Counted from the stretch's first letter, positions 3,345-43,661 are shown. The stretch is DNA of 64,000 bases from an uncultured bacterium (GCA_947085985.1 CAMTYL010000003.1:15826-79825), one strand, 5' to 3'. Numbers and translations: made by a program. The notes: a model not told the origin generated them from the sequence alone.

Positions 3345-3390
3345 GTGAAATTCAAAACACTACCATATATGGTAGTGTTTTGAATTTCAC
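3345..3390. terminator. 46-bp perfect palindrome gtgaaattcaaaacactaccatat|atatggtagtgttttgaatttcac, a probable bidirectional terminator immediately 3' of thrS
   Basis: Perfect dyad symmetry. It lies between convergent genes, 10 nt past the thrS stop. Confidence 0.55.
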
Positions 3391-5142: not shown

Positions 5143-5196
5143 ATAAAGGGAGAATACCACATTCGGACAATTCAGCGGGCAACTAGAGTCCTGGCA

Positions 5197-8403: not shown

Positions 8404-8464
8404 GTCTCTAGGATACCAAACTTAGAACGGAACACCTTACCAGGCATTTTGGTATGCTCTACCT

Positions 8465-9058
8465 ATGAAGTACCTGGTAGGGATTGATGAAGCGGGGCGC
8501 GGACCACTGGCAGGGCCGGTGGCTGTGGGGGTAGCGCGTGTCGCGGAAGGGTACGACGTATTGGAGGCTTTTCCCGGATTAAACGATTCCAAAAAGCTCA
8601 CCGAGAAAAAGCGCGACGCGCTGTTTGAGATATTGCAGGCGGAAGTTTCTGCGGGGAATGTGCGAGTGCGGGTATGTCTTTCAAGCGAGAAGGTCATAGA
8701 CGAAAAGGGAATTGCGTACGCGATACGCTCGGCTCTTTCTCGGGGGCTAGAAGCGTTGTTGCCAGACCCTGCCGAAGGGAAAGTGCTTCTTGATGGGTCG
8801 CTTAAGGCACCGAAAGAATACGAGCAAGAAACAATTATAGGAGGAGACGGAAAAGAGCCCGTCATTATGCTCGCCGCGCTTGCAGCAAAAGTGACGCGTG
8901 ACAGACTCATGATTAAGCTCGCGAAAGAGTACCCGCAGTACGGATTTGAGGGGCACAAAGGATACGGAACGAAAGCGCACATATCTGCCATTCATGAATA
9001 TGGTGTGTGCGTTATCCACCGCAAAAGTTTCATTCACTTTGACAACGGTGCTAAATAA
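8465..9058 (+). CDS. rnhB: ribonuclease HII
   Basis: LVGIDEAGRGPLAGPV signature, 197 aa. Confidence 0.9.
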   Translation: MKYLVGIDEAGRGPLAGPVAVGVARVAEGYDVLEAFPGLNDSKKLTEKKRDALFEILQAEVSAGNVRVRVCLSSEKVIDEKGIAYAIRSALSRGLEALLPDPAEGKVLLDGSLKAPKEYEQETIIGGDGKEPVIMLAALAAKVTRDRLMIKLAKEYPQYGFEGHKGYGTKAHISAIHEYGVCVIHRKSFIHFDNGAK

Positions 9059-9103
9059 GCGCATAATAACAACTTGTGCTAATAAAAAAGTTGGGAGGAA
9101 ATA

Positions 9104-9349
9104 ATGGGCTGTGGTTGTAGCTCTTTGCACTACGACAAAGCGCGCCAGCGCGCACCTGCTTTGCTTCAGGCCGGATTTACGGCCTGCGTGAAGAATGGTG
9201 ATGCGTGTACCTGTTCGAGCACTCTTGTTGAGCTGCCCGAACCGAAGTACGGCATTTCTGTCGGAATAAAATGCAGCCGTCGCGGGCCGGACCCCGTGAT
9301 CGCTGCCGAAGTGCGCTCCTGTAAGCGCTTCAAGGCCCACTCTCCCTGA
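9104..9349 (+). CDS. hypothetical Cys-rich small protein, 81 aa with 9 Cys
   Basis: GGGAGG lies 6 nt upstream. A strong terminator follows directly. GC-richer than neighbours. N-terminus MGCGCSS. Confidence 0.4.
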   Translation: MGCGCSSLHYDKARQRAPALLQAGFTACVKNGDACTCSSTLVELPEPKYGISVGIKCSRRGPDPVIAAEVRSCKRFKAHSP

Positions 9350-9406: not shown

Positions 9407-9433
9407 TAGCCCAAATGGTAAGGTAGGCTCTAT

Positions 9434-9793
9434 ATGTCAGTACGAATGCGCCACACCAGTTCCCATACTAAAAACCGCCGAAGCCACCACGCTCTCGTGG
9501 AGGGGGCTATCGTAAAGGATAAGGAGTCAGGCGCACTACGCCTCCCACACCGTATTGATGAGACCACCGGTATGTATCGTGGCAAGCAAATTGTACCTAA
9601 GAAGGAAGTAAAGGCAGAGAGCAAGAAGCGCCAGGCACGCATTGAAGCTCACGAGCACGAGGACAAGACTATCGGTACCAAGGATCCAATTCACGTGGAA
9701 GACGTGACGGAGAAGAAGGCAGGCAAGGGTCTTGCAGGACGCATGCAGCTGGGCAAGGCAAAGAGTCGCTCAGGTTTCGGTGGCGGTGCTTAG
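9434..9793 (+). CDS. rpmF: ribosomal protein bL32 with a ~60-aa Lys/Glu-rich C-terminal extension
   Basis: N-terminus [21 protein letters not shown] matches the bL32 RRSHxAL core. TGGTAAGGT lies 9 nt upstream of the ATG. Confidence 0.7.
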
Positions 9794-10036: not shown

Positions 10037-10120
10037 AACGAACGACCCTTTATACACAGTGAAAAGTACTAGCACCTTTATGCGTGCGTGGCGTATACTT
10101 CCAAGTAAGCTCTTTCATAT

Positions 10121-11020
10121 ATGGCAAATCGGCACCTAGCCCGCTCCGTAGTTCTACAAACTCTTTTTGAGTGGGACACTACGCACGCAACAGACGACGC
10201 AACAACAGAAATGTTGAAGCGTAACGTTGAAGAATTTGGCGGCGGCGACACCGACATTCCATTTATGGAACAACTCCTCCAGGGTGTGCTCGCAAAGCGA
10301 CCCGACCTAGATTTAGTAATTGAAAAGGCAGCGCCGGATTGGCCACTTGATCGCATTGCACCCGTAGACCGAAACATTTTGCGCATTGGCTTGTACGAGC
10401 TTTTGTTTGCCGACCGCACACAGGTGCCGGCAAAAGTTGCTATCAACGAAGCAATTGAACTGGCCAAGGTATTTGGCGGAGACTCTTCCGGACGATTTAT
10501 AAACGGCGTACTTGGCGCCGTGTACAAGGAGCTTGGTGAGCCAGGTAAGGACGAAGTAGGGAAGAAGGAACGCGTACGTCGCGAAGACTTGCCGCTTGAA
10601 CAGCTTGGCGGAGCCATTGTCTATGCTGAGCACCATGGTCAGTACTACCTTGCACTCGTGCACGACGTGTTTGGACACTGGACGCTTTCCAAAGGAAAAA
10701 TTCCTGAGGGCATGAGTGTAGAGGACGGTACCGTGGAGGGGATTAAAGACGAGCTTGGCCTTCCGGTAAAAATTAAAGACAAGATTGGAGAGAACGAATA
10801 CATCGCGTCGCACCCAGAGAAGGGAAAGACCCGAAAGCACGTCACCTACTTCCTTGCGGAGTCTCCGTACGAGGAAATTACGCTTGAAAAGAAGGGTGGG
10901 TTAGACGATGCGCGCTGGTTCCGTTTGACCGACATCTTGGACCTAAACTTCTACGACGACATGCTGCCGATTGTGACCGCGGCCGTACAGAAGCTGCTTG
11001 ATAAGTCGTCACGCCGCTAG
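10121..11020 (+). CDS. nusB: NusB antitermination factor fused to a C-terminal Nudix-like domain
   Basis: NusB fold in aa 1-140 (RHLARSVVLQTLFEWD...). aa 170-290 carry a degenerate Nudix box GKIPEGMSVEDGTVEGIKDELGL. Confidence 0.8.
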   Translation: MANRHLARSVVLQTLFEWDTTHATDDATTEMLKRNVEEFGGGDTDIPFMEQLLQGVLAKRPDLDLVIEKAAPDWPLDRIAPVDRNILRIGLYELLFADRTQVPAKVAINEAIELAKVFGGDSSGRFINGVLGAVYKELGEPGKDEVGKKERVRREDLPLEQLGGAIVYAEHHGQYYLALVHDVFGHWTLSKGKIPEGMSVEDGTVEGIKDELGLPVKIKDKIGENEYIASHPEKGKTRKHVTYFLAESPYEEITLEKKGGLDDARWFRLTDILDLNFYDDMLPIVTAAVQKLLDKSSRR

Positions 11021-11063: not shown

Positions 11064-11078
11064 TGGTATAATATACAT
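11064..11078 (+). promoter_or_regulatory. extended -10 element TGGTATAAT ending 6 nt before the rnc ATG, implying a leaderless promoter
   Basis: TGnTATAAT consensus. No SD and no room for a leader. Confidence 0.45.
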
Positions 11079-12121: not shown

Positions 12122-12191
12122 GCGGCAGCCCTCAACCAATGGCCACCTCCTTCAATGGGGGTGGCCGTTCTCGTGCGGTATACTACAAGCA

Positions 12192-14399
12192 ATGTTGAAG
12201 CGGTTAGAAATCGCGGGATTCAAATCATTTGCCAAGAAGACCACGCTGGATTTCTCTAGCGCGGCTACCGCTATTGTGGGCCCTAATGGTTCGGGCAAAT
12301 CAAACGTCGCTGAAGCATTCCGCTTCGCGCTTGGTGAGCAGTCCATGAAGAGTATGCGCGGCAAGCGTAGCGAAGACCTTATCTGGAGCGGTTCGCATCA
12401 GACTGCGCGCTCCAACCGCGCGTCGGTGACTATCGTATTTGATAACACCAAGAAAATTTTTCCTAGAATGGAGTACGACGAAGTCTCCATCGAGCGTGCG
12501 GTATTCCGTGATGGCTCAAGCGAGTATTCTATCAACGGTTCCCGTGTGCGCCTGCGCGACGTGCAGGAGCTTTTGTCTGCCGCAAACATTGGCGAGACAG
12601 GGCACCATATTATTTCTCAAGGAGAGGCAGACCGCATTCTCTCTAGCGCGCCGCGTGAGCGCCGCGCCATGCTTGAGGACGCGCTTGGCCTAAAGATTTT
12701 TGAATTCAAGAAGCAGGAAGCGGAACGCAAGCTTGAGAAGACCGAGGACAATATGCGCGAAGTAGAGGCGCTGCGCCGAGAGATTGCGCCGCACATTCGT
12801 TTCTTGCAGAAGCAGGTAGAGAAGCTGGAACGGGCAGAAGAACTTGCAAGCGAGCTGCGCACTTTGAGCCAGACGTATCTTGCTATAGAGGACGCGTACA
12901 TATCGCAGGAAAAAGATAAAGCAGAGATGCATTTGGTACAGGTTCGTGAACAGCTTGCGGTGATGGTTGCCGAGCTACATTCGTTTGAAGAGCGTGCTAC
13001 CACCGACATAGAAGGTACACGTCGCAGCGAAAGCGTGCGTGCGCACGAGCGCGAGCTTGAAAAGCTATTGGGTGAGCGTGCACAGCTCTCGCGCGACGTT
13101 GGTCGCATTGAGGGCGCGCTAGAATCTGCCAAGCGTCGCAGCGTAAGTGTGATGCAAGACCCGTATGCAAAGGTGCCGCGCGAGGATCTGGCAGCACTGA
13201 AGGAAGAGGCTGAGCGAGTAGTAGACGAGAATGATGCGCAGGCACTCTCTGCGGTCCTTCGCAGTCTGCGCAACGCCATCACGGCGTTCTTTGAACGCTA
13301 CGCAATTCCGGCGGACGATTATCTAGCAGAGGAAGAGCAGACGGTCATGCGGCTTGAGGCAGAGCGCGCGCAAATCGCGCAGAAGGAAACAGATTTAAGT
13401 GATCGTGTAGAGCACGCAAAGAGCACGCTCATGAAGGCGCGCGAGGCAACCATGGCGTACCAGGAAACGGGTCGCGAGCAGAATCGTCACTTGCTTGACC
13501 TTGCTGATAAGAAAGCAAAGCTTGAGACCGAAGTGGTGCGTGTTGAGTCTCGCCTCGGAGAATTGGAGAGTTTGCGCGAAGAGTATGAGCGTGACCGTCG
13601 CGAGATTGTAGCGCTTGCTGGTGCAGCCGCTCTTTCTTTTGAGAAGCTGGAGCGACTTCCTGACGAGGACCGCAGAGCACAAGAAGACCGTAAGCGTAGC
13701 CTTGAACGCCTTAAGATTCGCGTGGAGGAAGCGGGTGGCTCGGGTGAGGATGTGCGTCACGAATACAAGGAAGCAAAGGAACGCGAGGAATTCCTAGCTC
13801 GCGAGATTGAAGACCTTACCAAGTCATCCCTTGGCTTGCGCGAGCTTATTGCAGACCTTGATACAGAGCTCACCAAAACCTTTGCAGAAGGTCTTGCGAA
13901 GGTGAACGAGTCGTTCAGCGAATTCTTTGGACTTATGTTCGGAGGTGGAAGCGCAAAGCTCGTGCTTGAGGAGTTGCCAGAACCAGGTAGTGAAGAGGAA
14001 GACGAATACGAGGTAGAAGAGCCATCGCGTAAGAGAAACATGAAGCCAGGTATTGAAATCTCGGTGCACCTACCAAAGAAGCGTTTGCAATCGCTCATGC
14101 AGCTCTCTGGTGGTGAGCGCGCACTCACGAGTATCGCGCTTATCTTTGCTATGAGCCAGGTCAACCCGCCACCGTTCCTTATTTTGGACGAGACTGATGC
14201 AGCGCTCGACGAGGCAAATAGTCGTCGCTACGGAGACATGATTGAGAGTCTCTCAAAGAAGTCTCAGCTTATCGTGATTACGCACAACCGCGAGACCATG
14301 AGCCGCGCCGGCATCCTCTACGGGGTCACCATGGGCGGAGATGGCATTTCTAAGCTCCTTTCCGTGCGGTTTGAGGAGGCGGTGCAGGTAGCTAAGTAA
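12192..14399 (+). CDS. SMC-family ATPase, short 735-aa form with no evident hinge domain
   Basis: N-terminal Walker A GPNGSGKSN, C-terminal signature LSGGERALTSIALIFAM plus Walker B LILDETDAALD, and a long central coiled coil. Confidence 0.85.
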   Translation: MLKRLEIAGFKSFAKKTTLDFSSAATAIVGPNGSGKSNVAEAFRFALGEQSMKSMRGKRSEDLIWSGSHQTARSNRASVTIVFDNTKKIFPRMEYDEVSIERAVFRDGSSEYSINGSRVRLRDVQELLSAANIGETGHHIISQGEADRILSSAPRERRAMLEDALGLKIFEFKKQEAERKLEKTEDNMREVEALRREIAPHIRFLQKQVEKLERAEELASELRTLSQTYLAIEDAYISQEKDKAEMHLVQVREQLAVMVAELHSFEERATTDIEGTRRSESVRAHERELEKLLGERAQLSRDVGRIEGALESAKRRSVSVMQDPYAKVPREDLAALKEEAERVVDENDAQALSAVLRSLRNAITAFFERYAIPADDYLAEEEQTVMRLEAERAQIAQKETDLSDRVEHAKSTLMKAREATMAYQETGREQNRHLLDLADKKAKLETEVVRVESRLGELESLREEYERDRREIVALAGAAALSFEKLERLPDEDRRAQEDRKRSLERLKIRVEEAGGSGEDVRHEYKEAKEREEFLAREIEDLTKSSLGLRELIADLDTELTKTFAEGLAKVNESFSEFFGLMFGGGSAKLVLEELPEPGSEEEDEYEVEEPSRKRNMKPGIEISVHLPKKRLQSLMQLSGGERALTSIALIFAMSQVNPPPFLILDETDAALDEANSRRYGDMIESLSKKSQLIVITHNRETMSRAGILYGVTMGGDGISKLLSVRFEEAVQVAK

Positions 14400-14534: not shown

Positions 14535-14638
14535 TTTCTTAACTAGAGGGTTGAGATTCAAATTGCGAACGAAGCTTTTATCCCCAACTTTTGATATGAA
14601 GGGAGGTAAGCTGTATCAATATCACTAATTAGTCACCT

Positions 14639-15859
14639 ATGGCCGCATTTCAATACTTTAAGGAGAACGTAGACAAGGCAGCAGATTTGCTCGGACTCTC
14701 GCAAGAAGATCGGGCAAAGCTCGAGACGCCCGACCGTGTACTTCGTGCAGAGCTTTCAATTACGCTTGATAGCGGAGAGACTGCTACCTACCCCGCATAC
14801 CGAGTGCAGTTCAATAATGCGCGCGGACCATACAAGGGTGGTATCCGTTTCCATCCAGACGCTGACGAGGACGAAGTGTCTGCACTTGCGGCCATGATGG
14901 CTATTAAGTGTGCCGTGGTAGATATTCCGTTTGGTGGAGCGAAGGGTGGTGTTGCGGTAGATCCAAAGCAACTCTCAGAGGCAGAGATTGAACGCTTGTC
15001 CCGTGCGTACGTGCGCGCCTTTGGTGAGCACCTGGGGCCAGACGTAGATGTGCCAGCGCCAGACGTGTACACAACCCCGGCCATCATGGCGATTATGCGG
15101 GACGAGTACGAGCAAATGGTGGGGCACGCGGCGCCCGCATTCATCACCGGAAAGCCACTAGAGAATGGGGGAAGTCTTGGGCGAGACACCGCAACCGCTG
15201 ATGGCGCCATTATGGTGCTTGATGCGCTTCTGGCCGACCAACATCGTGATATGGGTGAGCTCACCGCTGCCGTGCAGGGGGCGGGGAATGCGGGCGCGCA
15301 GGCAGCACGCCTGCTTGAGCGCGGTGGTGCACGTGTAATCGCGATAAGTGACAGTAAGGGCACCCTCGCAAACAAGGGCGGTCTTTCTGTGGATGCGGTG
15401 CTTTCTATTAAAGAAGACAAGGGTTCAGTGCATGACGCCGCGGCGCTTGGTGACGCGCTGCCTGCAGAATTTATTGTGAGTGCTCCCGTAGATGTGCTGG
15501 TGCCGGCTGCACTTGAAGAGCAGATCCGTGCAGACAATGCAGAGAGCGTGCAGGCGGGAATCATTCTAGAAATTGCCAACGGTCCCGTGACGCCAGAGGC
15601 GGATGCAATCTTGTCGCTCCGTGGTGCTGCAATTGTGCCCGATGTTCTCGCAAACGCAGGTGGAGTGACGGTGTCGTACTTTGAGTGGCTACAGAACAAG
15701 GCGGGTGAGTCGTGGGGTAAGGAAGAGATTCATGAGCGTCTTGAGAAAGTGATGCACGACGCATACCGTGATGTGGCTGACTTTGCGCTCATGCGTGGCG
15801 TCACGCTGCGCGAGGCTGCGTACGCGCTCGCCATCTCTCGCATCCTGGAAGCGCGATAG
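14639..15859 (+). CDS. gdhA: glutamate dehydrogenase (NAD(P)+)
   Basis: KGGIRFHP, GGAKGG and a Rossmann GAGNAG motif, 406 aa. Confidence 0.9.
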   Translation: MAAFQYFKENVDKAADLLGLSQEDRAKLETPDRVLRAELSITLDSGETATYPAYRVQFNNARGPYKGGIRFHPDADEDEVSALAAMMAIKCAVVDIPFGGAKGGVAVDPKQLSEAEIERLSRAYVRAFGEHLGPDVDVPAPDVYTTPAIMAIMRDEYEQMVGHAAPAFITGKPLENGGSLGRDTATADGAIMVLDALLADQHRDMGELTAAVQGAGNAGAQAARLLERGGARVIAISDSKGTLANKGGLSVDAVLSIKEDKGSVHDAAALGDALPAEFIVSAPVDVLVPAALEEQIRADNAESVQAGIILEIANGPVTPEADAILSLRGAAIVPDVLANAGGVTVSYFEWLQNKAGESWGKEEIHERLEKVMHDAYRDVADFALMRGVTLREAAYALAISRILEAR

Positions 15860-15868
15860 TATAGACCT

Positions 15869-18355: not shown

Positions 18356-18398
18356 CCATTTGACCTATAGCCAGTATTTTGGTACTGTTCCACTCACT

Positions 18399-18890
18399 AT
18401 GTTGATGATCCGATTCCAGCGCATTGGTCGTAAAAACGACGCGGCGTTTCGTATGGCTGTGCTTCCAAAGGCTTCTGGCCCAAAGGCTGGTAAGTATGTT
18501 GATCTCGTTGGTACCTATAACCCAAAGACCAAGGCGATTACCGTAGATGCGGAAAAGATTAAGGGCTGGGTTTCTAAGGGTGCGCAGATGTCTCCAAGCC
18601 TCCACAACCTTCTTGTGAAGAATGGCACCATCGAGGGAACAAAGACCGCGAAGGTAGTTTCAAAGAAGAACCTTGAGAAGAACATCAAGGCAAAGGCAGA
18701 GGCCGAAGCAAAGGAAGCAGCTGCTAAGGCAGCAGCAGACGCAAAGGCAGCTGAGGCCGCAAAGGCTGAAGCAGAAGCAGCAGCACAGGCTGCAGCCGCA
18801 GAAGCCGAGGCTCCTGCAGCTGAGGAAGTTGTTGCAGAGGCTCCTGCTGAGGAGGCTGCACCTGCTACCGAAGAAACTCCTGCTGCGTAA
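18399..18890 (+). CDS. rpsP: ribosomal protein bS16 with a ~70-aa Ala/Glu/Lys-rich C-terminal tail
   Basis: MLMIRFQRIGRKNDAAFRMAV matches the bS16 N-terminus. TGGTACTGT lies 10 nt upstream. The tail is AKAEAEAKEAAAKAAADAKAAEAAKAEAEAAAQAAAAEAEAPAAEE. Confidence 0.85.
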   Translation: MLMIRFQRIGRKNDAAFRMAVLPKASGPKAGKYVDLVGTYNPKTKAITVDAEKIKGWVSKGAQMSPSLHNLLVKNGTIEGTKTAKVVSKKNLEKNIKAKAEAEAKEAAAKAAADAKAAEAAKAEAEAAAQAAAAEAEAPAAEEVVAEAPAEEAAPATEETPAA

Positions 18891-29073: not shown

Positions 29074-29173
29074 AACACCTCCTTGTGTTTAGCCGTACTT
29101 AAACTATAGCACTTTATAGTGTTTTGTAAAGTACCCGCGCGAAAGCGCAGGTTTGGCGGTAAACTAGAGAGTA

Positions 29174-30901
29174 ATGGCCGTAGACACCGTCGAGCAGATA
29201 AAGCAGAAACTCACCATTGTAGATGTGGTGGGTAGCTACGTAAAACTGACGCGTGCAGGCAAGCACCATCGTGGCCTCTCTCCATTCAACAAAGAGAAGA
29301 CTCCATCTTTTTACGTAAACCCAGAGCGCGGCAGCTACTACTGTTTCTCCTCGGGTCAGGGCGGCGACATGTTTACCTTCATAGAGAAAATGGAGGGCGT
29401 GGACTTTAAGGGTGCGCTCAAAATTCTTGCAGACAAAGCAGGGGTGGAGATTGTGTACCAGGGTGGAGGCAACAAGGAGGACAAGGGAAAGAAGGATCGC
29501 CTGTATGAGGCAATGGCGCGTGCAGAAAGTTTCTATACCGGGCTGTTGATGGACGGAAAGGAAGTGCCAGGCAGTGCGTACGCATACGCGCTTTCGCGCG
29601 GACTCTCACACGAGACGATAAAGAACTGGGGCCTAGGCTACGCACCCGATGGCTGGCGCGGACTCCTGGAGAAATTGATGGCAGACGGATTTACCCAAGC
29701 GGAGCTGGTAGCTGCGGGGCTTGTGAAGGAAGCCGACGAGAAGAAGGGCACCTACTACGACCGATTCCGTAATCGACTCATGTTCCCGATTCGCGACTCT
29801 GCAGGGCGCACCGTTGCGTTCACGGGCCGAGCACTTGATCCTAACGACCAGGCCAAATACCTAAACAGCCCAGAGACGGATTTGTATAAAAAGTCAGAAA
29901 TTCTCTTTGGTATGGACCGTGCCAAAGACGCCATCCGCGTGCGTGGCTTTGCGCTTATGGTGGAAGGGCAGATGGACTTGCTCATGCTCCACCAAATTGG
30001 ATTCACCAACGCCATCGCGCTCTCTGGCACAGCGCTCACGCCCCAGCACCTCGCACTTATTAAGCGCTACGCCGACAATTTGATGTTGGCGCTAGATAGT
30101 GACCGTGCGGGACTCGCGGCCAGCCAGAAGAACGCCATCACCGCGCTCAAGGCTGGTATGCGTGTAAAGGCCGTACGTATGCCGCAGGGGAAAGACCCAG
30201 CAGACCTGGCGCTGGAGGATCCAAAGGATTTGACCAAGCGCATTGCAGACGCGCACACCATCGTTGAGTTTTTCTTACTGGTACTTGCGGAGAACTATCC
30301 CGACTCGCTTCGCTTGATAGTGGCGAGCGAGCGCGCCGTGCTCCCGCTTATTGCCAGCATGGAAAGCGCTATGGAGCGCGAGCACTTTGTGGGTATCGTT
30401 GCAAGAGCACTGCAGTCCACACCCGACGCGGTGCGCGACGGGTTAGAGCGTACCCGAAAAAGCATGGAGCAGGACGGCGGACCCGTACACGAGGGTGTAA
30501 GAAAAGCCGAACCAGGTCGGCTACAACAGGTGCCCATCCCAGCATCTAGTGTGGGGGAGCGGCACGCAATTTTAGTCCGAGCTATTGCTGTGAGCTATCC
30601 TGGGACAACGCTTGCCGAAAGGCTGGAAACCGAGTATTCTCGTATTATCGGCTCACCGTTTCCGGACGACCAACTGCCCGAGCATGAAGTCTTTGAGGCA
30701 GGTATCGCTTATGGCGAGAATCCGGACGAGCACGCAGCTGACGATCTAATACGAGCTCTTGAGAAGGCGACCCTCGGGGAACGCCTTGCACACGTGTCTA
30801 AGGAGCTCCGCCTCGCGGAAGCCTCTGGCGACGAAATGAATGCACGCGCCCTCGCAGACGAAAGTCGCACTCTGGCCCGAAGACTGTCGGCACTTTCCTA
30901 A
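29174..30901 (+). CDS. dnaG: DNA primase
   Basis: TOPRIM (VEGQMDLL...DSDRAG) and RNA-polymerase core domains. The N-terminal zinc ribbon is degenerate: SPFNKEK...YYCFSSG has only one of the four usual Zn ligands. Confidence 0.9.
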
Positions 30902-30939
30902 GTACGATTTACCAAGGTGCGCCCCTAACTCCTTTTCCT

Positions 30940-32283
30940 ATGCCAACGAAGAAGACGGTGAAGAAGGCTGCAAAGCCTGTAAAGAAAGCTGCACCAAAAA
31001 AAGTAACTAAGAAGGTTGCACCCAAAAAAGTAGCACCTAAGAAGGTCGTGAAGAAGGCTGCTCCAAAGAAGGTGGTAAAGAAAGCTGTAAAGGCAGTAAA
31101 AAAAGCTGTAAAGAAGACCGCGCCCAAGAAGGTTGCTGCAAAGAAAACTTCCGCAAAGAAGGAAGGAATGAAGAAGGTGGTAAAGGTTGCGTTGACCGGA
31201 GCAAAGGCAAAGGCAGCTGCGCAGAACGAGACCAAGGCCGAGCACCTTATCAAGAAGGGTAAGGAGCGTGGGTACATCACCTACTCTGAAATCCTTCGCG
31301 AGTTCCCACACATCGAGGACGACGTGTCCTTCCTCGAGGAGCTCTACGAGCGCTTCGCGGTCTCTGGTATCGATATTCTTGAGGGCGGTATGCTCGAGGA
31401 CAACGCAGACGAATACCTCGCTACCCGCAACATCAAGGGTCGCGATTCTTCGGGCTACGACTCTATTCAGATTTACCTCCGCGAGATTGGTCAGTACCCG
31501 CTCTTGACCGCCTCTGAGGAGCGCGAGCTCGCTCAGCGCATCGACGCAGGCGACGACGAGGCACGCAACATTCTTGCGCGTTCTAACCTCCGCCTCGTGG
31601 TGTCTATTGCAAAAAAGTATGTGGGACGCTCTCCAGACTTGACCCTCCTAGACCTTATTCAGGAAGGAAACCTCGGACTCTTCAAGGCCGTAGACAAGTT
31701 CGACTGGAAGAAGGGATACAAGTTCTCTACCTACGCTACCTGGTGGATTCGCCAGGCTATCACGCGCGCACTCGCCGACCAGTCCCGCACCATTCGTATT
31801 CCGGTACACATGGTGGAGACCATCGCCAAGTACAAGCAGGTGTCTCGCCGCCTAGCGCAGGCGCTTGGTCGCGACCCACAGCCAGAGGAAGTTGCTATTG
31901 AGATGGGTGTAGAGGTAGACAAGATTTACCAGATTGAGAAAATCAATCAGGACACTCTTTCTCTTGAGAACCCAATTGGTTCAGACGACGACGACCGCTC
32001 AACGCTCGGCGACTTTATTGCAGACGATAAAATTCCGTCTCCAATTCAGGAATCTTCAGAGCGCATCTTGGGTGAGCAGGTTCGTGACATTCTGGACGAC
32101 CTCTCTCCAAAGGAGCGCAAGATCCTAGAGATGCGTCATGGTTTGCTCGACGGTGTGTACCACACGCTTGAGGAGGTGGGGAAGGAGTTCGGGGTAACAC
32201 GTGAGCGTATTCGCCAAATCGAGGCGAAAGCCTTGGAGAAAATTAGAACTCATGAGAAGTCACGAAGACTCAAGAGTTACTAA
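30940..32283 (+). CDS. rpoD: primary sigma-70 factor with a ~95-aa Lys/Ala/Pro-rich histone-H1-like N-terminal tail
   Basis: Region 2 [13 protein letters not shown], region 4.2 HTH, and N-terminal KKAAPKKV repeats. Confidence 0.9.
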
Positions 32284-32465
32284 TTTTCTCCTCGCAAAAG
32301 CATCTCAGCTACGTCGTTACGGGTCCCTCGCGGGCCCGTTCGTCGTACCACTCATACGCCTCAGGTCCCGCGCTTCCCGTGCCTTGTCCCTGAGCCCTTT
32401 TGCGGGCTTTCCGGCGCTCGCGATGCTTTGCTTAGCAAATACGCTAAAAGCGATATAATAAGCAT

Positions 32466-33074
32466 ATGGACGAAATCGTATACATATTAATAAATGAAGC
32501 GATGCCGGGTTATGTAAAAATAGGTCTGACAAGTGGCTCGCTCGAGGAAAGAATTCGCTCGCTTGATACAACAGGTGTGCCACTTCCTTTTGAATGTTTC
32601 TATGCCGCAAGGGTAAATGATTGTCGGATGGTAGAAAAACTTCTGCACGATACTTTCCTTGATTATCGTGTTCGATCAAATCGCGAGTTCTTTGAAGTTT
32701 CCCCTGAGCGCGTAGTTTCTGCTATAAAGCTTGCCGAAGTTGAGAATGTAACACCGCAACGAGACTTTGTTGAATCAGAAGAAGATCAGAAGGCACTCAA
32801 TCAGGCACGCGAAAAGAGATCTGCTTTTAACTTCGGCATGGTGGATATACCGGTCGGGTCTGAGATTGTTTTTGTGAACGATGAGAATATTCGCGCGAAA
32901 GTCGTTAAATTGAGTGGCAAACGAAGTATCGAATTCAATGGGGAACTAACTAGTCCTTCAACGGCTGCGCAGAAGGTACTTGGCTACCCATACAATGTAC
33001 AGGGAACAGTATATTGGATGTATCAAGGGGAAACATTGGATGAACGTCGTCGCAGGTTGGAAAATCAAGAATAG
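32466..33074 (+). CDS. GIY-YIG/T5orf172 nuclease-family protein with a C-terminal DUF4357-like domain
   Basis: IVYILINEAMPGYVKIGLTS...LEERIRSL...REFFEV (T5orf172 core) and a C-terminal ...TSPSTAAQKVLGYPYNVQGTVYWMYQGETL. TATAAT lies 6 nt upstream of the ATG. AT-richer than the backbone. Confidence 0.75.
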   Translation: MDEIVYILINEAMPGYVKIGLTSGSLEERIRSLDTTGVPLPFECFYAARVNDCRMVEKLLHDTFLDYRVRSNREFFEVSPERVVSAIKLAEVENVTPQRDFVESEEDQKALNQAREKRSAFNFGMVDIPVGSEIVFVNDENIRAKVVKLSGKRSIEFNGELTSPSTAAQKVLGYPYNVQGTVYWMYQGETLDERRRRLENQE

Positions 33075-33984
33075 TTTTGTGGCAGTCGAAAATCTTACAG
33101 GGCTCGAAAAGCCATTACAGAAATTAGTTGAAACCGTCTCCGAAGGAGTTGGGGTTGTTGGGAATCACCTCTTTAAATTTGATGTTGCAAAAATTAAACG
33201 AATTGGAGAAGCAGAAGCAGAGATCGAAAAGGGCAAGATTATTGCACAAGCTGAAGCTCAAGAGAAAGCGGTAGAAATTTTAAGTAGGGCAGAAATAAGA
33301 TTTGCACTAGAGCAATACAACAAACAGATTAATTTAGAGAATATACTAGTTAAATCTAGAGAAGATTTGTCGGAGAAAGAGGTTACTGATGAGGCGGTAG
33401 ATAAGGATTGGACGATGCGATTCTTGGACATTGCCCAGAATGTGAGTCGAGACGAAATGCAGGATGTTCTTGCAAAGATTCTATCTGGAGAGATCCAAAA
33501 ACCAGGTAGTTATTCTTATCAGACTCTAGAGGTCGTTAAATATCTGTCACAGAGAGACTTGGAAAGGTTTTTAAAGTTCGTAGCTCTTTCTACGGAAGTA
33601 GGTGTAATAAAATTACACGGAGGAAGTAGCGAATCGCTTCAAAAATATGGACTGAATTTTGGTGATTACTTAGACTTGTCTTCAATCGGTCTATTTAATC
33701 AATCTTCAATGCTTTCTTATAACATTGAGATGAAACCGGAAGGAAAACATCCAATTAATATCGGCGGAGAATGGTTCATTCTTCAGAACGAAGATAAGGA
33801 GAACAGTAAAAAATTTAATCTTGGACTTTTTGTATTTTCAAATGTAGGTAGGGAAATACGTTCTCTCTTACTCGAGCGAGCGGAAAATGAACATGCGGGA
33901 ATATATAAAACTGATTTTATAGAGGAAACTGAAAAGAAATCCATTAAAGTTACCAAGGCTATATTCAAGACTAAAGAAGTATAG
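33040..33984 (+). CDS. DUF2806-like protein, hypothetical, overlapping the 3' end of the GIY-YIG gene
   Basis: The segment DKDWTMRFLDIAQNVSRDEMQDVLAKILSGEIQKPGSYSYQTLEVVKYL resembles the DUF2806 core (recalled from memory, not searched). Start at ATG 33040 is uncertain and could be 32980. Confidence 0.6.
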   Translation: MNVVAGWKIKNSFVAVENLTGLEKPLQKLVETVSEGVGVVGNHLFKFDVAKIKRIGEAEAEIEKGKIIAQAEAQEKAVEILSRAEIRFALEQYNKQINLENILVKSREDLSEKEVTDEAVDKDWTMRFLDIAQNVSRDEMQDVLAKILSGEIQKPGSYSYQTLEVVKYLSQRDLERFLKFVALSTEVGVIKLHGGSSESLQKYGLNFGDYLDLSSIGLFNQSSMLSYNIEMKPEGKHPINIGGEWFILQNEDKENSKKFNLGLFVFSNVGREIRSLLLERAENEHAGIYKTDFIEETEKKSIKVTKAIFKTKEV

Positions 33985-34185
33985 AAATATGCCGCAGGAG
34001 AGGCGTAGTTAAGTGGGCTCAAAGTAGGAGCCTTTATGCGCCAATATACCCCGCCCGCCGTACACTTACGTCTCCTTCGGCGGACTTCCCGCGCCCAGCG
34101 TCTAGGGCCTTTTTACTTCGCTTGCAGACAGGATCATTTAGGGTTCGCGCCTTCAATTCTGCACACTTGGTATATAATTTAGAAA

Positions 34186-34787
34186 ATGGACAAGAAAGAA
34201 ATTACAAGTCTGCTTGAAAGGCATAAGGCAAAGCGTCCTCGAACTATTGTCGTAGTGGATTTTGGCAACGTAGATAAGTGGAAAGAAAGTCTTGGGTGGA
34301 AGGTCGGTATCCAGGAACTGGCTCAGCTCATCAAGCACTTTTCCTACGGCAAAAGTTTTTACGCAGATTTTATTATGGCGAGGATTACGGGCCAGATGAA
34401 CGCTCCATAAAGCGAACGGTATGGTCGGAAAACATCCTGACCCGTGCACGCATGAATGGATTTGAACTAGTTACAAAAAGAGTCAAATATATCCATAATC
34501 AAGATTACATAACAGGATTTTTAGCCAAGTGTGAACTTGACGTTGAAATGGCCGTTGACCTGATACGAGAAAAGGATAACTACGATTCTGTTTTGCTGCT
34601 CTCAGGTGATGGAGATCTAGTGCCGGTGTTGCAGTATTTAAAACGGTTTCATTCTAAGGAATGTATAGTTATGAGTGCTCGAGGTCACGTGGCTCGTGAA
34701 GTTATAGACGCTAGAGTCTCTGGTATTATCGACGAACTCCTCTTTGCAGAAGACTTTGAATACCGACTCCGAATGCGCGTTTACTAG
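34186..34787 (+). pseudogene. NYN/LabA-like (DUF88) nuclease-domain gene disrupted by a -1 frameshift in an aaaa/ttttt homopolymer near 34380
   Basis: Frame 1 encodes IVVVDFGNVD...KHFSYGKS. Frame 3 continues FLRRFYYGEDYG...LLLSGDGDLVPVLQ. Spliced together they give a canonical NYN domain. Confidence 0.5.
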
Positions 34788-34954
34788 CGCAATCAGAAAC
34801 CCCGCCTTTCAGCGGGGTTTCGATCAAAATCCGGCAAGCCGTTGCTTACATCTGTATTATACAGAGTTTCGATGAATTTTCAATGATATCCACAGAGAAG
34901 CAATTTGACTGCCCTTGATACCTGAATTGACCCGTATGGGCTATTATTAAAGAT

Positions 34955-36865
34955 ATGAAAAAAGCCGGAGGAGGAGAGAAAATCGATGGTTTATCGGCTG
35001 ATGTTCAAGCTGAGCGTTTAGAAGCTTTGCGGCAGGTAGTTCCAGAGGCCTTTTCGGAAGGGCAATTGGACGTGGACAAACTTAAAGCTCTCTTCTCTGA
35101 GGAGGTGCAAGCAGGAGACGAAGAGGGTGAACGTTTTCGTCTTGAATGGGCAGGGAAGCACAAGGTTTTTGATGAAATCGCCAAGAGAACTTCTTGCACA
35201 CTTACTCTTGACCCAGATCGTTCATCTGAAGATTTTGAACAATCGCAAAACGTATTTATTGAAGGTGAAAACTTAGAAGTATTGCGCGCGCTCCAGAAGG
35301 CATATTTCGGGAAGGTGAAGATGATTTACATTGATCCTCCATACAATACGGGAAAGGATTTTGTGTACAACGACGACTTCCGTCAAACAGAAGCTGAGTA
35401 TTGCGAGGATACTTGTAATGTGGACGAGAATGGAAACTTGAAGCGCGCGTACAAACTGAACACTAAGGACTCAGGTCGCTATCATTCAAACTGGCTTTCG
35501 ATGATGTACCCACGTCTGTACCTTGCACGCAACCTTCTCCGTGATGATGGAGTCATTTTCGTTTCCATTGACGATAACGAAGTTCACAACTTGCGCGCAC
35601 TCATGAATGAAGTTTTTGGTGAGGAAAACTTCATCGAGATTTTTTCTTGGCAGAAGACAGAAACCCCACCAAATCTTTCAAAATTAACAAAAAAAAGTGT
35701 CGAATACGTGCTTGCATACAGGAAATCGTACAAACGCAGTACTTTAATGGGACTGAGTAAGAATAGTTCGAGTAGTAATGGTCTAATGAACCAAACTAAT
35801 TCAGAAAAGATACTTACTTTTCCTAAGGATGTCACAGAAACTGCAATAAGTGACGGGATGCTTCCAAAAGGAAGGTACGGAACAGATAGTTATACTATTG
35901 AGTTAATGGAGGACGCAGAAGTCAAAAATGGGAGGTTTGTAACGTCAGTCATTCTTAAGGGGAAGTTTAAATGGTCTCAGGCAAATCTTGAGAGAGAAAT
36001 TTTAGACGGTACGAAGATCTCAATTCGAACTACCTCACTTTCGCCATCATACGAGCGTGAAGAATATGCACCTGAAGCGCCGTGGAATTTAATCGACAGG
36101 GATTTCGGTGTCGGTACTAATGAGGCTGCAAGTGATGAGCTGGATAGTCTTTTTGGTAAGATAGAAATTTTTGACCACCCAAAACCACCTTCATTAATTC
36201 AATACCTCCTTAACTTTCTCAGGGATACTAAAGACGAGGAAGATCTAGTACTTGATTTCTTTTCAGGTTCGGGAACTACTGCTCACGCAGTAATGGCGCA
36301 AAATGCAGTAGATGGAGGTAATCGTCATTACATCTGCGTACAGATGCCTGAACAGACATCTGAAAAGAGCGAGGCACGGAAGGCAGAATTCGCAAAAATC
36401 TCCGATATTGCTATCGAGCGTATCAAGCGCGCCGCAAACAAGATCCGTAGCGAGAAACCAGATTACTCCGGTGACCTTGGTGTGCGTGTTTACTGTGTGA
36501 CTGATTCGAACTTTCCACAATGGCACGCGCGCTCGTTCGACTCTGACTCTGAGCTGGAGGAATCACTCTTTGCGCACGTGGGCCGTGTGGCTGGAGGAGA
36601 CGAGCGTGCACGCGCTACGGAAGTGCTACTGAAGATTGGTCACGACCTAAATACTTCCATTGAGCAGTCTGATGGGTTTTTGCTCGCTGATAGTTCTATT
36701 GCACTTATCCTTCGAGACGATTTTAAAGCGCAGGATTTGAATAAGGTATTCCAAACAAAGCCAAGGATAGTGATAGTACTCGAGCGCATATTTGCTAACG
36801 ACGATGAAAAGATAAACTTCGCACTTCGATGTAAAGAAGAAAAAGTAGTCTTTCAGACCGTGTAA
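34955..36865 (+). CDS. mod: Type III restriction-modification N6-adenine DNA methyltransferase (Mod)
   Basis: The DPPYNTG motif comes before FFSGSGTTAH, which is the beta-class order. 636 aa with a central variable TRD. Confidence 0.85.
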   Translation: MKKAGGGEKIDGLSADVQAERLEALRQVVPEAFSEGQLDVDKLKALFSEEVQAGDEEGERFRLEWAGKHKVFDEIAKRTSCTLTLDPDRSSEDFEQSQNVFIEGENLEVLRALQKAYFGKVKMIYIDPPYNTGKDFVYNDDFRQTEAEYCEDTCNVDENGNLKRAYKLNTKDSGRYHSNWLSMMYPRLYLARNLLRDDGVIFVSIDDNEVHNLRALMNEVFGEENFIEIFSWQKTETPPNLSKLTKKSVEYVLAYRKSYKRSTLMGLSKNSSSSNGLMNQTNSEKILTFPKDVTETAISDGMLPKGRYGTDSYTIELMEDAEVKNGRFVTSVILKGKFKWSQANLEREILDGTKISIRTTSLSPSYEREEYAPEAPWNLIDRDFGVGTNEAASDELDSLFGKIEIFDHPKPPSLIQYLLNFLRDTKDEEDLVLDFFSGSGTTAHAVMAQNAVDGGNRHYICVQMPEQTSEKSEARKAEFAKISDIAIERIKRAANKIRSEKPDYSGDLGVRVYCVTDSNFPQWHARSFDSDSELEESLFAHVGRVAGGDERARATEVLLKIGHDLNTSIEQSDGFLLADSSIALILRDDFKAQDLNKVFQTKPRIVIVLERIFANDDEKINFALRCKEEKVVFQTV

Positions 36866-36866
36866 C

Positions 36867-39524
36867 ATGAAGCTTAAATTCGATGCAGAACAGCAATTTC
36901 AGCTTGATGCAATCGAGTCTGTAGCGGATTTGTTTGTGGGGCAGCAGACCACGTCTGGCGCAGGACTCTTTGGAGAGTCAACACTTGGCATGTTTCAGAA
37001 CGAGCGTGGAATAGGTAATCTGCTCCAGATAGACGAGGGGGCGCTACTCGAGAATTTGAGGAGCGTGCAGGAAAAGAATAAACTCCCAATACAGTCGGAG
37101 CTTGCTGGAAAGCATTTCTCCATAGAAATGGAAACAGGTACAGGTAAGACGTATGTGTACTTGCGTACTATATTTGAACTCCACCAGCGTTTCGGATTTT
37201 CAAAATTTATCATTGTAGTACCAGGCAAGGCTATTCGTGAGGGTGTTTTAAACTCTCTCGAAATCACTAAGGAGCATTTGCGCAACCTGTACGGGAACCC
37301 GCCTTATAGTTTCTTTGCATATAACAGTAAGCGCCCAGCCGACTTGCGAGCATTTGCTACCTCAAATGCGCTTAGTGTGATGCTCATAAATATTGAAGCA
37401 TTTAATACCGAGGACAACATCATAAATCGTGCGAACGACTCGATAGGAGGAGTCCCAATTGAGCTTGTCCAGAAGACGCATCCAATAGTAATTATGGACG
37501 AGCCGCAAAATATGGAATCTCCAGCTGCACAGGCTGCTATTGCAGCACTTAACCCACTTTGTACCCTTCGATACTCTGCTACCCATCGAAATCTCTATAA
37601 TCAAATCTATCGACTTGGGCCTGTGGAGGCATATGATCAGGGTTTGGTAAAAAGAATTGAGGTGGCATCTGTAGCCGAAGAAGGAAGTCAGAACGACGCG
37701 TACATAAAGATACTAGATGTAAAGGCTGGAAAGAGATCAATCGTTGCTAATCTCGAGATAGAATCCAACCACAAGGGTGAGATCAAGAAAACCAAAGTTC
37801 GTTGTTCAACGTCGGGTACAGAATCTGATTTGTATGCATTGTCAGGAAACCTACCCGCTTACGATGGCTACACGCTTAGTCGCATCGATGCAGAATTGGG
37901 CGAGGTGGAGTTTGGTAATGGTGTTGTTGTGTCGAGGAATGCTGCTGTGGGGGAGATGAAGGATGAGATCATGAAGCAGCAAGTAGCGGAGACCGTACGA
38001 GAGCACTTCGAAAAAATGCTCAAGTTTGTAAGGTCTGGGCAGGACATAAAAGTGCTATCGCTCTTTTTCATAGATCGAGTGGCAAATTATCGTAACCATG
38101 AGACAGGTGCGCCAGGGAAGCTCGCCCTGTGGTTTGAAGAGGTGTACGAGGAGTTTAGGCAGTTACCGCGCTACAGTTCGCTCGTACTTCCACCGGTAAG
38201 CTCAGTTCACGACGGCTATTTCTCCAAAGACAAGAAGGGAACACTCAAGGACACGAAAGGAAGTACGGAAGAGGACCGCTCTACATACGAACGCATCATG
38301 AAAGACAAAGAGCGTCTTCTTTCTTCTGATGAACCGCTGCAGTTCATTTTCTCTCACTCTGCGCTGAAAGAGGGCTGGGACAACCCAAACGTCTTTCAAA
38401 TATGTACACTGAACGAAGCAGAATCATATGTAAAGAAGCGTCAGGAAATTGGGCGTGGCTTGCGTCTGCCAGTTAACCAGCAGGGAGATAGGATATTTGA
38501 TCGATCCATAAACACTCTCACAGTCATTGCGAACGAGAGCTATGAAACCTTTGCCCGCTCGCTTCAGCAAGAAATTGAGGAAGAAACTGGACAAGTTTTC
38601 GGAAGAGAGAGAATTGTTGATAAGCGCAAGCGAAAGCAAGTCTCACTTAGAAAGCATTGGGAATTGGATGAACACTTTATCGAGTTGTGGTCGCGAATTA
38701 ATAAGCGAACTAGATATGCGGTTACGCTGGATATGGATTTGTTTCTTGCAAAAGCAACTGAAGCCCTGTCCCATATACCTTCTCAAGAGCCACGTATACG
38801 AGTTGACGTTGCTTCGCTTAATTTTGACCAGAGCAAGGGAATCTTGACCACAAAGAGATCAGAACGAACTGGAAGAAGTTTCGGACAGTCCTTGCCCGTT
38901 CCAGATGTGCTGAGCTATATCTCGCAGCACACAGAACTGCGTACAGCAACAGTGGTCCGTCTACTGAAGGACTCAGATATTTTCGGCAAACTTCGTTCAA
39001 ACCCTCAGTACGTTATGGATCAAGCAGTAGCGGAAATAAAGCGCGTGATGCAATTCATGATTATTGACGGAATTAAGTACGAGCGAATTGCGGATTCTGA
39101 GTACGAGATGCAGATTTTCAAGGACGCAGAAATAGAGTCGTATCTTACTAATATGAGGAAAGTGGAAGTGGTCGAGAAGACTATTTATGACTTTGTGGTC
39201 TGCGATTCTAATGTCGAGATGAGTTTTGCAGAAGAGCTTGAGGCGCGAGACGAGATTGAGTTCTATATGAAGCTACCGTCAAAATTCAAGATAGAAACAC
39301 CGCTAGGCTCTTATAATCCCGACTGGGCTATCATCTTCCGTGGTGATTCCAAGCTGTACTTGGTAGCTGAGACCAAGGGAACAGATCGTGCCGACGAGCT
39401 TTCGATTTCTGAGCAATTGAAGATTAGAGCGAGCGAAAAGCACTTTACTGCAATTGGCGAAGCAATCTACCTGGCTCCTGTGCGCGACATGAGCGGTTTA
39501 TCAGAAAGGTTGAAATCGTTATGA
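36867..39524 (+). CDS. res: Type III restriction endonuclease (Res) with SF2 helicase and PD-(D/E)xK nuclease domains
   Basis: Walker A METGTGKT, motif II VIMDEPQN, and C-terminal YNPDW...VAETKG. Confidence 0.85.
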   Translation: MKLKFDAEQQFQLDAIESVADLFVGQQTTSGAGLFGESTLGMFQNERGIGNLLQIDEGALLENLRSVQEKNKLPIQSELAGKHFSIEMETGTGKTYVYLRTIFELHQRFGFSKFIIVVPGKAIREGVLNSLEITKEHLRNLYGNPPYSFFAYNSKRPADLRAFATSNALSVMLINIEAFNTEDNIINRANDSIGGVPIELVQKTHPIVIMDEPQNMESPAAQAAIAALNPLCTLRYSATHRNLYNQIYRLGPVEAYDQGLVKRIEVASVAEEGSQNDAYIKILDVKAGKRSIVANLEIESNHKGEIKKTKVRCSTSGTESDLYALSGNLPAYDGYTLSRIDAELGEVEFGNGVVVSRNAAVGEMKDEIMKQQVAETVREHFEKMLKFVRSGQDIKVLSLFFIDRVANYRNHETGAPGKLALWFEEVYEEFRQLPRYSSLVLPPVSSVHDGYFSKDKKGTLKDTKGSTEEDRSTYERIMKDKERLLSSDEPLQFIFSHSALKEGWDNPNVFQICTLNEAESYVKKRQEIGRGLRLPVNQQGDRIFDRSINTLTVIANESYETFARSLQQEIEEETGQVFGRERIVDKRKRKQVSLRKHWELDEHFIELWSRINKRTRYAVTLDMDLFLAKATEALSHIPSQEPRIRVDVASLNFDQSKGILTTKRSERTGRSFGQSLPVPDVLSYISQHTELRTATVVRLLKDSDIFGKLRSNPQYVMDQAVAEIKRVMQFMIIDGIKYERIADSEYEMQIFKDAEIESYLTNMRKVEVVEKTIYDFVVCDSNVEMSFAEELEARDEIEFYMKLPSKFKIETPLGSYNPDWAIIFRGDSKLYLVAETKGTDRADELSISEQLKIRASEKHFTAIGEAIYLAPVRDMSGLSERLKSL

Positions 39525-41232: not shown

Positions 41233-41270
41233 TGGGTGAAAAGACTGAGGGCCGCGCACAAGATGTACGC
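41233..41270 (-). terminator. hairpin gggccgcg-(11 nt)-cgcggccc plus T-run on the minus strand, first of two identical copies
   Basis: A 36-bp sequence aagactgagggccgcgcacaagatgtacgcggccct repeats at 41768. Confidence 0.5.
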
Positions 41271-41290
41271 GGCCCTGTTGCCACTACTGG

Positions 41291-41767: not shown

Positions 41768-41805
41768 GACTGAGGGCCGCGCACAAGATGTACGCGGCCC
41801 TTTTA
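41768..41805 (-). terminator. second copy of the same hairpin terminator, 3' of the HD-domain gene
   Basis: Identical 36-mer. Confidence 0.5.
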
Positions 41806-43588: not shown

Positions 43589-43661
43589 CGCACAGAGCAA
43601 TATGCCGAAAAACCGCCAGCGCTGCCTAGGGCGACTTTGCAGGACTCCTTTCAAAACCCGT

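Follow-up and report, generated by a model that had tools for sequence, protein, structure and literature searches.

Bacteria assigned to group C by GeneMarkS-2, such as Mycobacterium tuberculosis and Deinococcus deserti, carry a Pribnow box 6-8 nt from gene starts, an architecture documented by differential RNA sequencing (dRNA-seq) in Mycobacterium and Deinococcus; 25-50% of the transcripts of such bacteria are leaderless and the remaining genes use Shine-Dalgarno (SD) sites (PMC6028130). Patescibacteria have small ribosomes, without uL30 and often without uL1 and bL9, and some Parcubacteria are without an anti-SD; the sequence CCTCCT was present in just 48% of the Parcubacteria 16S rRNA genes surveyed (Tsurumaki et al. 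2022, PMC9297842). That study makes no mention of leaderless mRNAs or promoters, and our full-text literature search found no paper that reports a group C-like layout for candidate phyla radiation (CPR) bacteria, Patescibacteria, Parcubacteria or Saccharibacteria. Here we describe a stretch of 64,000 nt from an uncultured bacterium (GCA_947085985.1 CAMTYL010000003.1:15826-79825; hereafter the window) in which a short element, TGGTAnnnT, stands a few nucleotides before many start codons, twice in the 61 bp between the divergent genes dnaE and rnhB. We consider it likely, with good confidence, that these elements are ordinary RpoD extended -10 promoters placed so that 5' ends fall at start codons, most genes being leaderless and a minority (~20%) SD-led.

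In these promoters, whose -35 is usually weak or absent, the last T of the -10 hexamer sits 6-9 nt before the ATG of most genes, and according to the proposed mechanism RNA polymerase, initiating ~7 nt past that T, would begin the transcript at the A of AUG or 1-4 nt before it. By this ~7-nt rule, +1 would coincide with the A of the start codon when the gap is 6 nt and would lie within three bases of it when the gap is 7-9 nt. Such mRNAs would be too short at the 5' end for an SD site and would follow the leaderless route, in which the ribosome binds the 5'-terminal AUG with the initiator tRNA. Most genes would form their own transcription unit, even in tight same-strand arrays, and a minority (~20%) would have a promoter with a better -35, a leader of 20-45 nt and a strong AGGAGG-type SD.

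The window is part of a Paceibacteria-type CPR (Patescibacteria) genome with a G+C content of ~53%. This assignment follows from the nearest relatives by DnaE among a collection of species-level genomes, which are all metagenome-assembled genomes (87% down to 52% identity) labelled Paceibacterota, Parcubacteria or Patescibacteria, some with the generic label 'Saccharibacteria'. In the close relative L088, core proteins are 92-99% identical to those of the window. The 56 complete genes in the window, including those for YjdM, a YgjP-like protein, DUF1905 and a 172-aa protein and the GTG-started gene at 44621, fall into three classes:

Motif at 5-12 nt (one at 14 nt) before the start: 32 genes, 57%
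SD-led: 11 genes, 20%
Neither signal: 13 genes, 23%

All 32 genes of the first class start with ATG, and none of 30 motif-bearing genes carries an SD. The preliminary description, a reading of the sequence alone, had likewise reported that backbone genes with the motif lack an SD, and the ten motif instances that it listed are all present where it placed them. The predicted elements are given here with the distance from their last base to the start codon:

8404-8464, no strand: dnaE/rnhB divergent intergenic region, 61 bp, containing a pair of extended -10 promoters placed back to back, with no other recognisable feature
8410-8418, minus: dnaE extended -10 TGGTATCCT, 6 nt before ATG 8403-8401
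8450-8458, plus: rnhB extended -10 TGGTATGCT, 6 nt before ATG 8465
5151-5159, minus: thrS extended -10 TGGTATTCT, 8 nt before ATG 5142
9416-9424, plus: rpmF extended -10 TGGTAAGGT, 9 nt before ATG 9434, with TTGCTT as a -35-like element upstream
11064-11072, plus: rnc extended -10 TGGTATAAT, 6 nt before ATG 11079
12176-12184, plus: SMC -10 CGGTATACT, 7 nt before ATG 12192, with a hairpin immediately 5'
15854-15862, plus: GFA-family gene -10 CGATAGTAT, 6 nt before ATG 15869
18360-18388, plus: rpsP full promoter, -35 TTGACC (18360-18365), 17-nt spacer and TGGTACTGT (18380-18388), 10 nt to ATG 18399
29157-29165, plus: dnaG -10 CGGTAAACT, 8 nt before ATG 29174, conserved in L088
32451-32459, plus: T5orf172 gene -10 CGATATAAT, 6 nt before ATG 32466
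34939-34947, plus: type III methylase -10 GGCTATTAT, 7 nt before ATG 34955, in a low-GC island
44533-44541, minus: EVE gene -10 CGCTAGTAT, 6 nt before ATG 44526
49234-49276, no strand: lipase/hyp49277 divergent region, 43 bp, with TGGTATCCT (49242-49250, minus), 8 nt before lipase ATG 49233 (minus), and GGCTATAAT (49262-49270, plus), 6 nt before the hyp49277 start at 49277
50590-50646, no strand: AI-2E transporter/YgjP-like divergent region, 57 bp, with GCGTATACT (50598-50606, minus) and GCGTAGAGT (50630-50638, plus); AI-2E ATG 50589 (minus), YgjP-like ATG 50647 (plus)
52140-52178, no strand: YjdM/UvrD-type helicase divergent region, 39 bp, with GGTTATACT (52148-52156, minus) and GGGTAAACT (52164-52172, plus); YjdM ATG 52139 (minus), helicase ATG 52179 (plus)
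58396-58404, minus: hisS extended -10 TGGTACACT, 9 nt before ATG 58386
63640-63688, no strand: GtrA/ABC ATPase divergent region, 49 bp, with CGCTAAAGT (63646-63654, minus) and TGGTATACT (63669-63677, plus); GtrA ATG 63639 (minus), ABC ATPase ATG 63689 (plus)

Evidence for the predicted absence of leaders comes from the divergent pairs. In five of them only 39 bp (YjdM/UvrD), 43 bp (lipase/hyp49277), 49 bp (GtrA/ABC), 57 bp (AI-2E/YgjP) and 61 bp (dnaE/rnhB) separate the two start codons, and each gap holds two oppositely oriented -10 elements; divergent pairs with an SD-led gene have 94-186 bp between start codons. The short gaps therefore leave no room for leaders, an argument that is independent of the ~7-nt rule, and the same divergent layout is found in the orthologous dnaE/rnhB regions of two relatives (L001 and L002). 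Within same-strand arrays, the stop codon of GDH lies inside the -10 hexamer of the GFA-family gene that follows it, and this overlap, together with the motif before other same-strand followers, suggests that most genes are separate transcription units. The spacing is most often 6 nt, as in 10 of 30 window genes, and 6 nt is the modal gap in relatives too.

Counts within the window agree with this placement. TGGTANNNT is present 33 times, compared with 18.6 +/- 4.1 in shuffled sequence, and TGGTANNNT-N6-9-ATG occurs 8 times against 0.8 +/- 0.9 expected (maximum 3), each of the eight opening an open reading frame (ORF) of at least 60 codons; the comparison with shuffled controls that the preliminary description had proposed, run here on the window alone, thus finds the motif enriched upstream of ATG. 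When every in-frame ATG near the 5' end was accepted as a candidate start, TAnnnT lay 5-10 nt before one in 25-27 of 51 genes, compared with 4-10 genes at control spacings. A control of 50 kb of Escherichia coli K-12 behaves differently: TAnnnT precedes 2 of its 42 annotated starts by 5-10 nt, and SD 4-mers peak strongly. The starts themselves are not an artefact of the motif search, because N-terminal alignments and independent gene calls agree on them: the proteins of relatives align from the same ATGs onward (MASLEEK in ThrS, MSVRMRH in L32, MLKRLEI in SMC, MLMIRFQ in S16), and gene calls in public assemblies have identical lengths for thrS (580 aa), rnhB (197), dnaE (1068), L32 (119) and GtrA (139). 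A longer GTG ORF from 5160 was rejected as thrS on the same two grounds, and the AI-2E gene is taken to start at 50589 rather than at an upstream TTG because its gene call in L088 is 348 aa. Two of the 33 TGGTANNNT matches, at 3357-3365 (minus) and 3370-3378 (plus), lie in a perfect palindrome with a 20-bp stem (3345-3390) between the convergent genes sm3096 and thrS, which is likely to be a bidirectional terminator rather than a promoter.

The arrangement recurs well beyond the window. In up to 80 related genomes, starts were fixed by protein alignment to 13 window genes, blind to the motif (n=374), and TAnnnT was found at spacings of 6, 7, 8 and 9 nt in 85, 78, 48 and 47 cases, compared with ~10 per position elsewhere. 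Spacings of 5-10 nt are found in 62/71 orthologues of dnaE, 30/47 of rnhB, 33/40 of thrS, 47/49 of rpmF, 33/44 of SMC and 14/16 of rpsP, and for rpsP both TTGAC and the -10 are conserved in relatives. In an independent metagenome sample, gathered by a scan anchored on the conserved rpmF 5' 20-mer, 63 of 68 distinct rpmF upstream sequences have the hexamer at a spacing of 6-9 nt. Motif placement is thus kept in orthologues across dozens of related genomes in which the flanking DNA is not conserved, and it is therefore the position of the promoter that selection holds. As judged from these alignments, the start-abutting -10 arrangement is clade-wide.

The bases that accompany the hexamer identify the motif as TGnTAnnnT, the predicted extended -10 type of promoter read by the housekeeping sigma factor; TGGTA is its commonest form. 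Thirty window genes were aligned on TAnnnT, chosen mainly by its presence at 5-12 nt and with the G-14 copy preferred, at the cost of a slight bias, where there were multiple hits; G-14 is found in 24/30 and T-15 in 15/30. Orthologue-anchored, hexamer-aligned upstream regions of relatives (n=252) have T-17 in 62%, T-15 in 62% and G-14 in 63%, and 62 of the 252 carry a TTG whose first base is at -36 to -34, compared with 1-6 for adjacent positions, which corresponds to a -35 at the canonical spacing of 17 +/- 1. The presence of TG and TTG at canonical distance argues for a promoter acting at the DNA level and not for an RNA signal, and the conserved positions T-12, A-11 and T-7 plus T-15/G-14 are those that sigma reads in DNA. 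A matching sigma factor is encoded in the window:

30940-32283, plus: rpoD, a canonical group-1 sigma factor with regions 1.1-4 that aligns end to end with SigA/RpoD structures

The segments that recognise the -10, the extended -10 (PVHMVET) and the -35 are all retained in this RpoD. The PVHMVET segment is equivalent to E. coli H455/E458 of sigma region 3.0, residues which Barne and co-workers reportedly found in 1997 to read the TG of extended -10 promoters.

The SD-led genes form a second class. SD starts had been placed at 3096, 9104, 11825, 28393 (minus), 29073 (minus), 42427 (minus) and 44621 (GTG) in the preliminary description, and a GGAGG-, AGGAG- or GGGGG-type SD is indeed found 4-9 nt before each. 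GGAGG shows positional enrichment at 3-9 nt from the beginning of ORFs, both in the window and, to a weak degree, in every group of relatives, and the SD-led genes are therefore real as a class. The earlier observation that two initiation regimes track base composition is borne out by ten of the eleven genes (44621 was identified later): G+C at third codon positions (GC3) is 0.74 in SD-led and 0.56 in leaderless-type genes (Mann-Whitney p = 1e-5), overall G+C 0.60 and 0.52, and median length 102 aa and 242 aa. The same compositional shift, weaker, is seen in relatives (+0.055 vs -0.001). SD-led genes are mostly lineage-specific, membrane-like segments are found in 6 of the 11, and several have strong two-hexamer promoters and leaders of 20-45 nt. 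Three of them illustrate the design:

9039-9349, plus: SD-led cassette with an 81-aa Cys-rich ORF (GC3 0.63), TTGACA-17-CATAAT (9039-9067), leader, SD GGGAGGA and ATG 9104
41822-42463, minus: SD-led HD-domain gene, ATG 42427, SD AAGGGGG, GC3 0.83, promoter TTGACT-17-TTAAGT
41291-41668, minus: SD-led gene for a 125-aa membrane protein (hyp41668), SD AAGGAGG, GC3 0.80, between two copies of one hairpin terminator

No homologue of the 9104 ORF was found in 80 related loci. A GC-rich hairpin (GAGGGCCGCGCACAAGATGTACGCGGCCC) stands 3' of both the HD gene and hyp41668 (41247-41275 and 41772-41800), and it recurs around the HD gene in relatives (L088 11169-11185; L091 3375-3391 and 4107-4123). It is a repeated terminator-like element bounding SD-led cassettes.

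Several other explanations of the motif were weighed. That it is a by-product of chance or composition, through the TA of upstream stop codons or biased picking of starts, is scarcely credible, even though the plain TANNNT-N6-9-ATG is not enriched window-wide (84 vs 71.8 +/- 8.5) and some starts were picked with the motif known. This origin was tested and rejected: the enrichment is positional and is present with motif-blind starts, the E. coli control is flat, G-14/T-15 and the -35 TTG are conserved though they lie outside the selection criteria, and divergent pairs have the motif without an upstream stop codon. It is also very improbable, in our judgement, that the motif acts in mRNA as a non-SD translation signal, as in Bacteroidota 'group B', on leadered and polycistronic transcripts. 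Such a signal would fit the copies before genes that begin 3-60 nt after a same-strand gene (GFA, rpoC, AOX-like, FAD oxidase, hisS), and the distant relatives without an anti-SD make some other signal imaginable. The positions conserved are, however, exactly those of sigma, a TTG stands 17 +/- 1 bp from the hexamer, hairpin-plus-T-run terminators are often immediately 5', and in the 39-61-bp divergent regions the motif of each gene stands 5' of every transcript start that could lie outside the adjacent gene. Group B describes a motif in leadered mRNA with no promoter architecture, and what is found here is a motif with -35 and TG companions in divergent regions of 39-61 bp. A further alternative accepts the promoter and holds that the mRNAs are mostly short-leadered (3-10 nt) or come from added upstream promoters, so that 'leaderless' is overstated. 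A second motif copy (8434-8442, minus) lies 30 nt 5' of dnaE, and the RNase R, RNase H-like and ABC genes have spacings of 11-14 nt. We regard this as improbable, since the modal spacings of 6 and 7 nt, in the window and in relatives, would place +1 on or beside the A, and an SD does not fit into a leader of 1-5 nt, a length usually counted together with leaderless mRNAs.

Four observations nevertheless weigh against predominantly leaderless expression from start-abutting promoters. The spacing is 8-12 nt in about one third of the window genes, which implies leaders of 1-5 nt or a flexible choice of start and also favors the short-leader alternative. Neither motif nor SD is found in 13 of the 56 genes, and rpoB, rpoD, nusB and GDH are apparently leadered without an SD; a third initiation mode therefore exists. 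No metagenome contigs starting at the rpmF ATG were found in the scan anchored on the rpmF 5' 20-mer. A classical two-hexamer promoter scan of 1-20 kb gave 5 hits vs 9.5 expected, with no enrichment, and picked out mainly the promoters of two SD-led genes, from which it follows that the promoters depend on the extended -10. A pyrimidine at -1 (76%; G 4%) was also considered as a leaderless mark and discarded: it fits the pyrimidine(-1)/purine(+1) preference and is equally common in motif-less genes. Taken together, leaderless expression from extended -10 promoters, as proposed in the preliminary description, is well supported by sequence and comparison, with the position of the transcription start and the mode of translation deduced from them.

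Whether the SD-led genes are imports is a separate matter. The preliminary description had read the leaderless genes as the native backbone and the GC-richer SD genes as recent imports, which would come from SD-using donors. In support of it, the composition of the SD-led genes is atypical, with a weak trend in the same direction in relatives; related loci contain no homologue of sm3096, sm9104, hyp28393, hyp29073 or hyp44013; the rpoC/dnaG slot of L088 holds a different SD-led gene of 62 aa; hyp44013 sits in an insertion between 58-nt direct repeats; and some of the genes have textbook TTGACA-17-CATAAT promoters. Against it, the HD gene, hyp41668 and hyp44621 are present in L088 with identical or near-identical SD regions, and HD orthologues at 77% and 55% identity keep the SD, the leader, the promoter, a GC3 of 0.66-0.75 and the place near EVE. 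With GC3 still high at 55-77% identity, there has been no drift to the genome average over a long time. Among 5.8 billion protein clusters the HD protein has 9 relatives and hyp20076 has 1, and so no donor lineage is visible. The evident imports are moreover of the leaderless type, namely the low-GC restriction-modification island and the RhuM-Fic gene of the insertion. We therefore find a general import origin doubtful, although it keeps a minor share of our credence; the idea survives for the five SD-led genes absent from relatives, which may be recent, and the general equation of native with leaderless and of SD-led with imported is not supported by the genes kept in L088 or by acquired DNA of leaderless type. 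In our own reading, the SD-led genes form an accessory class that is resident, although its members turn over fast. In the relative L089, an SD-led gene with a GC3 of 0.83 and an SD context like that of hyp41668 adjoins the HD orthologue, and hyp41668 may thus be a second one of the three genes to keep its SD in distant relatives.

Several features of the acquired and variable DNA were noted. The low-GC island (32400-39524, GC 0.38-0.46) contains T5orf172, DUF2806, a small ORF and a type III methylase with its restriction subunit. Because T5orf172, its first gene, has a start-abutting -10, the island uses the leaderless design. The same slot beside rpoD in L088 holds two D12-class methyltransferases and a 467-aa protein, and it looks like a variable defence slot. 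The insertion of ~1.6 kb at 42496-44147 contains a RhuM/Fic-domain gene, its main gene, with a start-abutting -10, and the SD-led hyp44013; its flanking 58-nt direct repeats are 81% identical and duplicate the EVE 3' end. In L088 the insertion is absent, and the EVE and HD genes are adjacent. Identity to L088 over 27000-55000 is a mosaic, ranging from 0.64 to 1.00 per 200-nt window, which suggests frequent homologous recombination within the population. Low synonymous divergence from L088 (HD 11/202, hyp41668 6/126, dnaG 115/576) was rejected as a sign of recent transfer on account of this mosaic, in which core segments are equally similar.

The leadered genes without an SD have C/T-rich leaders, such as those of rpoD (30885-30939) and GDH (14600-14638). 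Between the window and L088, the region 5' of rpoD (...CCCCTAACTCCTTTTCCT ATG) shows 100% identity, the adjacent coding DNA being 87-96% identical, and GDH orthologues have similar pyrimidine-rich leaders. The nusB-NUDIX gene (ATG 10121; upstream region 10088-10120) has a leader of ~20 nt, unlike its neighbours; the end of this leader, GCTCTTTC(C)AT, is kept before nusB in at least 10 related genomes, and the other upstream DNA varies. It contains GCTCTTT, which we take to be the core of boxA, the NusB/NusE binding site, and nusB may thus be autoregulated through its own leader. Two gene pairs look translationally coupled, the methylase with the restriction subunit across a gap of 1 nt, and the restriction subunit with the S49 peptidase through an ATGA overlap.

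Pfam backs the gene names thrS, dnaE, rnhB, rpmF, nusB-NUDIX fusion, rnc, SMC, RNase R, rpsP and trmD, and also rpoB, rpoC, dnaG, rpoD, hisS and others in the window. Several of the products are of unusual size or composition: L32 (119 aa, 9434-9793) and S16 (163 aa, 18399-18890) both carry a long extension at the C-terminus, NusB and a NUDIX domain form one fused protein (10121-11020), and SMC is only 735 aa (12192-14399). No rRNA, tRNA or Rfam matches were found in the 64,000 nt of the window.

The 16S rRNA was accordingly considered in relatives. In three distant ones the 3' end is ...GTGGAATATTTCA, without CCUCC, and full-length 16S ends in ...GCTCGTGGAATATTTCA, not GGATCACCTCCTTA. These genes, in L040 (792-2333, minus), L072 and L079 (the latter two at locus ends), terminate in ...GTGGAATA(T/A)TTCA, with no CCUCC anti-SD; that of L040 is full length by Rfam (model positions 1-1533) and adjoins the RNase R gene there, unlike in the window. 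The loci of the same three relatives have a -10 peak at spacing 6 and almost no GGAGG. From the conservation of SD sites between orthologues, the window organism has probably retained a functional anti-SD.

More broadly, leaderless mRNAs may prevail throughout the class Paceibacteria, with nearly every gene its own unit under an extended -10 promoter directly adjoining the start codon, and SD initiation kept only for small GC3-rich cassettes that have their own -35/-10, leader, SD and hairpin terminator; we hold this extension to be tentative, at slightly less than even credence. If it were true, the SD/anti-SD interaction would be dispensable, explaining the repeated loss of the anti-SD in Parcubacteria, and a minimal bacterium would have a two-tier expression system. 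A clade-wide leaderless design would offer a simple and testable answer to the question of translation initiation in CPR bacteria that are poor in anti-SD and reduced in their ribosomes. It would also bring a deep-branching lineage with reduced genomes into the discussion of whether leaderless initiation came first. Annotation is affected as well: rules that take the longest ORF misplace the starts of the thrS, rnc, rpsP, hisS, lipase and AI-2E genes by 6-59 codons, and the design is relevant to expression signals for the few cultivable CPR bacteria.

In its mechanism the system is ordinary, a standard promoter at a special distance, and the layout is already known in other phyla. The extended -10 promoters of E. 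coli and Gram-positive bacteria likewise have TG one base 5' of the hexamer and a -35 that is weak or dispensable; there they are a minority class, whereas here they are the default and stand at a fixed distance from the start codon. Archaea of group D (Haloferax, Sulfolobus) resemble the window in that transcripts mostly start at the start codon, from a promoter at a fixed distance, which is a TATA box ~26 nt upstream in their case and a bacterial -10 at 6-9 nt in ours. The Parcubacteria surveyed by Tsurumaki et al. belong to the same broad group and have lost the anti-SD in part, but the window organism probably retains it. The closest match is group C, which has TAnnnT ~6-8 nt from the start of first genes and no SD on those genes; the distribution of spacings and the hexamer pattern both agree. 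The lineage differs, being Patescibacteria (Paceibacteria-type) and not Actinobacteria or Deinococcus-Thermus, and the motif marks ~57% of all genes and not only operons, at the upper end of the 25-50% of transcripts that PMC6028130 gives for bacteria. Unlike in group C, the motif here, known from sequence alone, also occurs inside same-strand arrays, alongside many leadered genes that have no SD.

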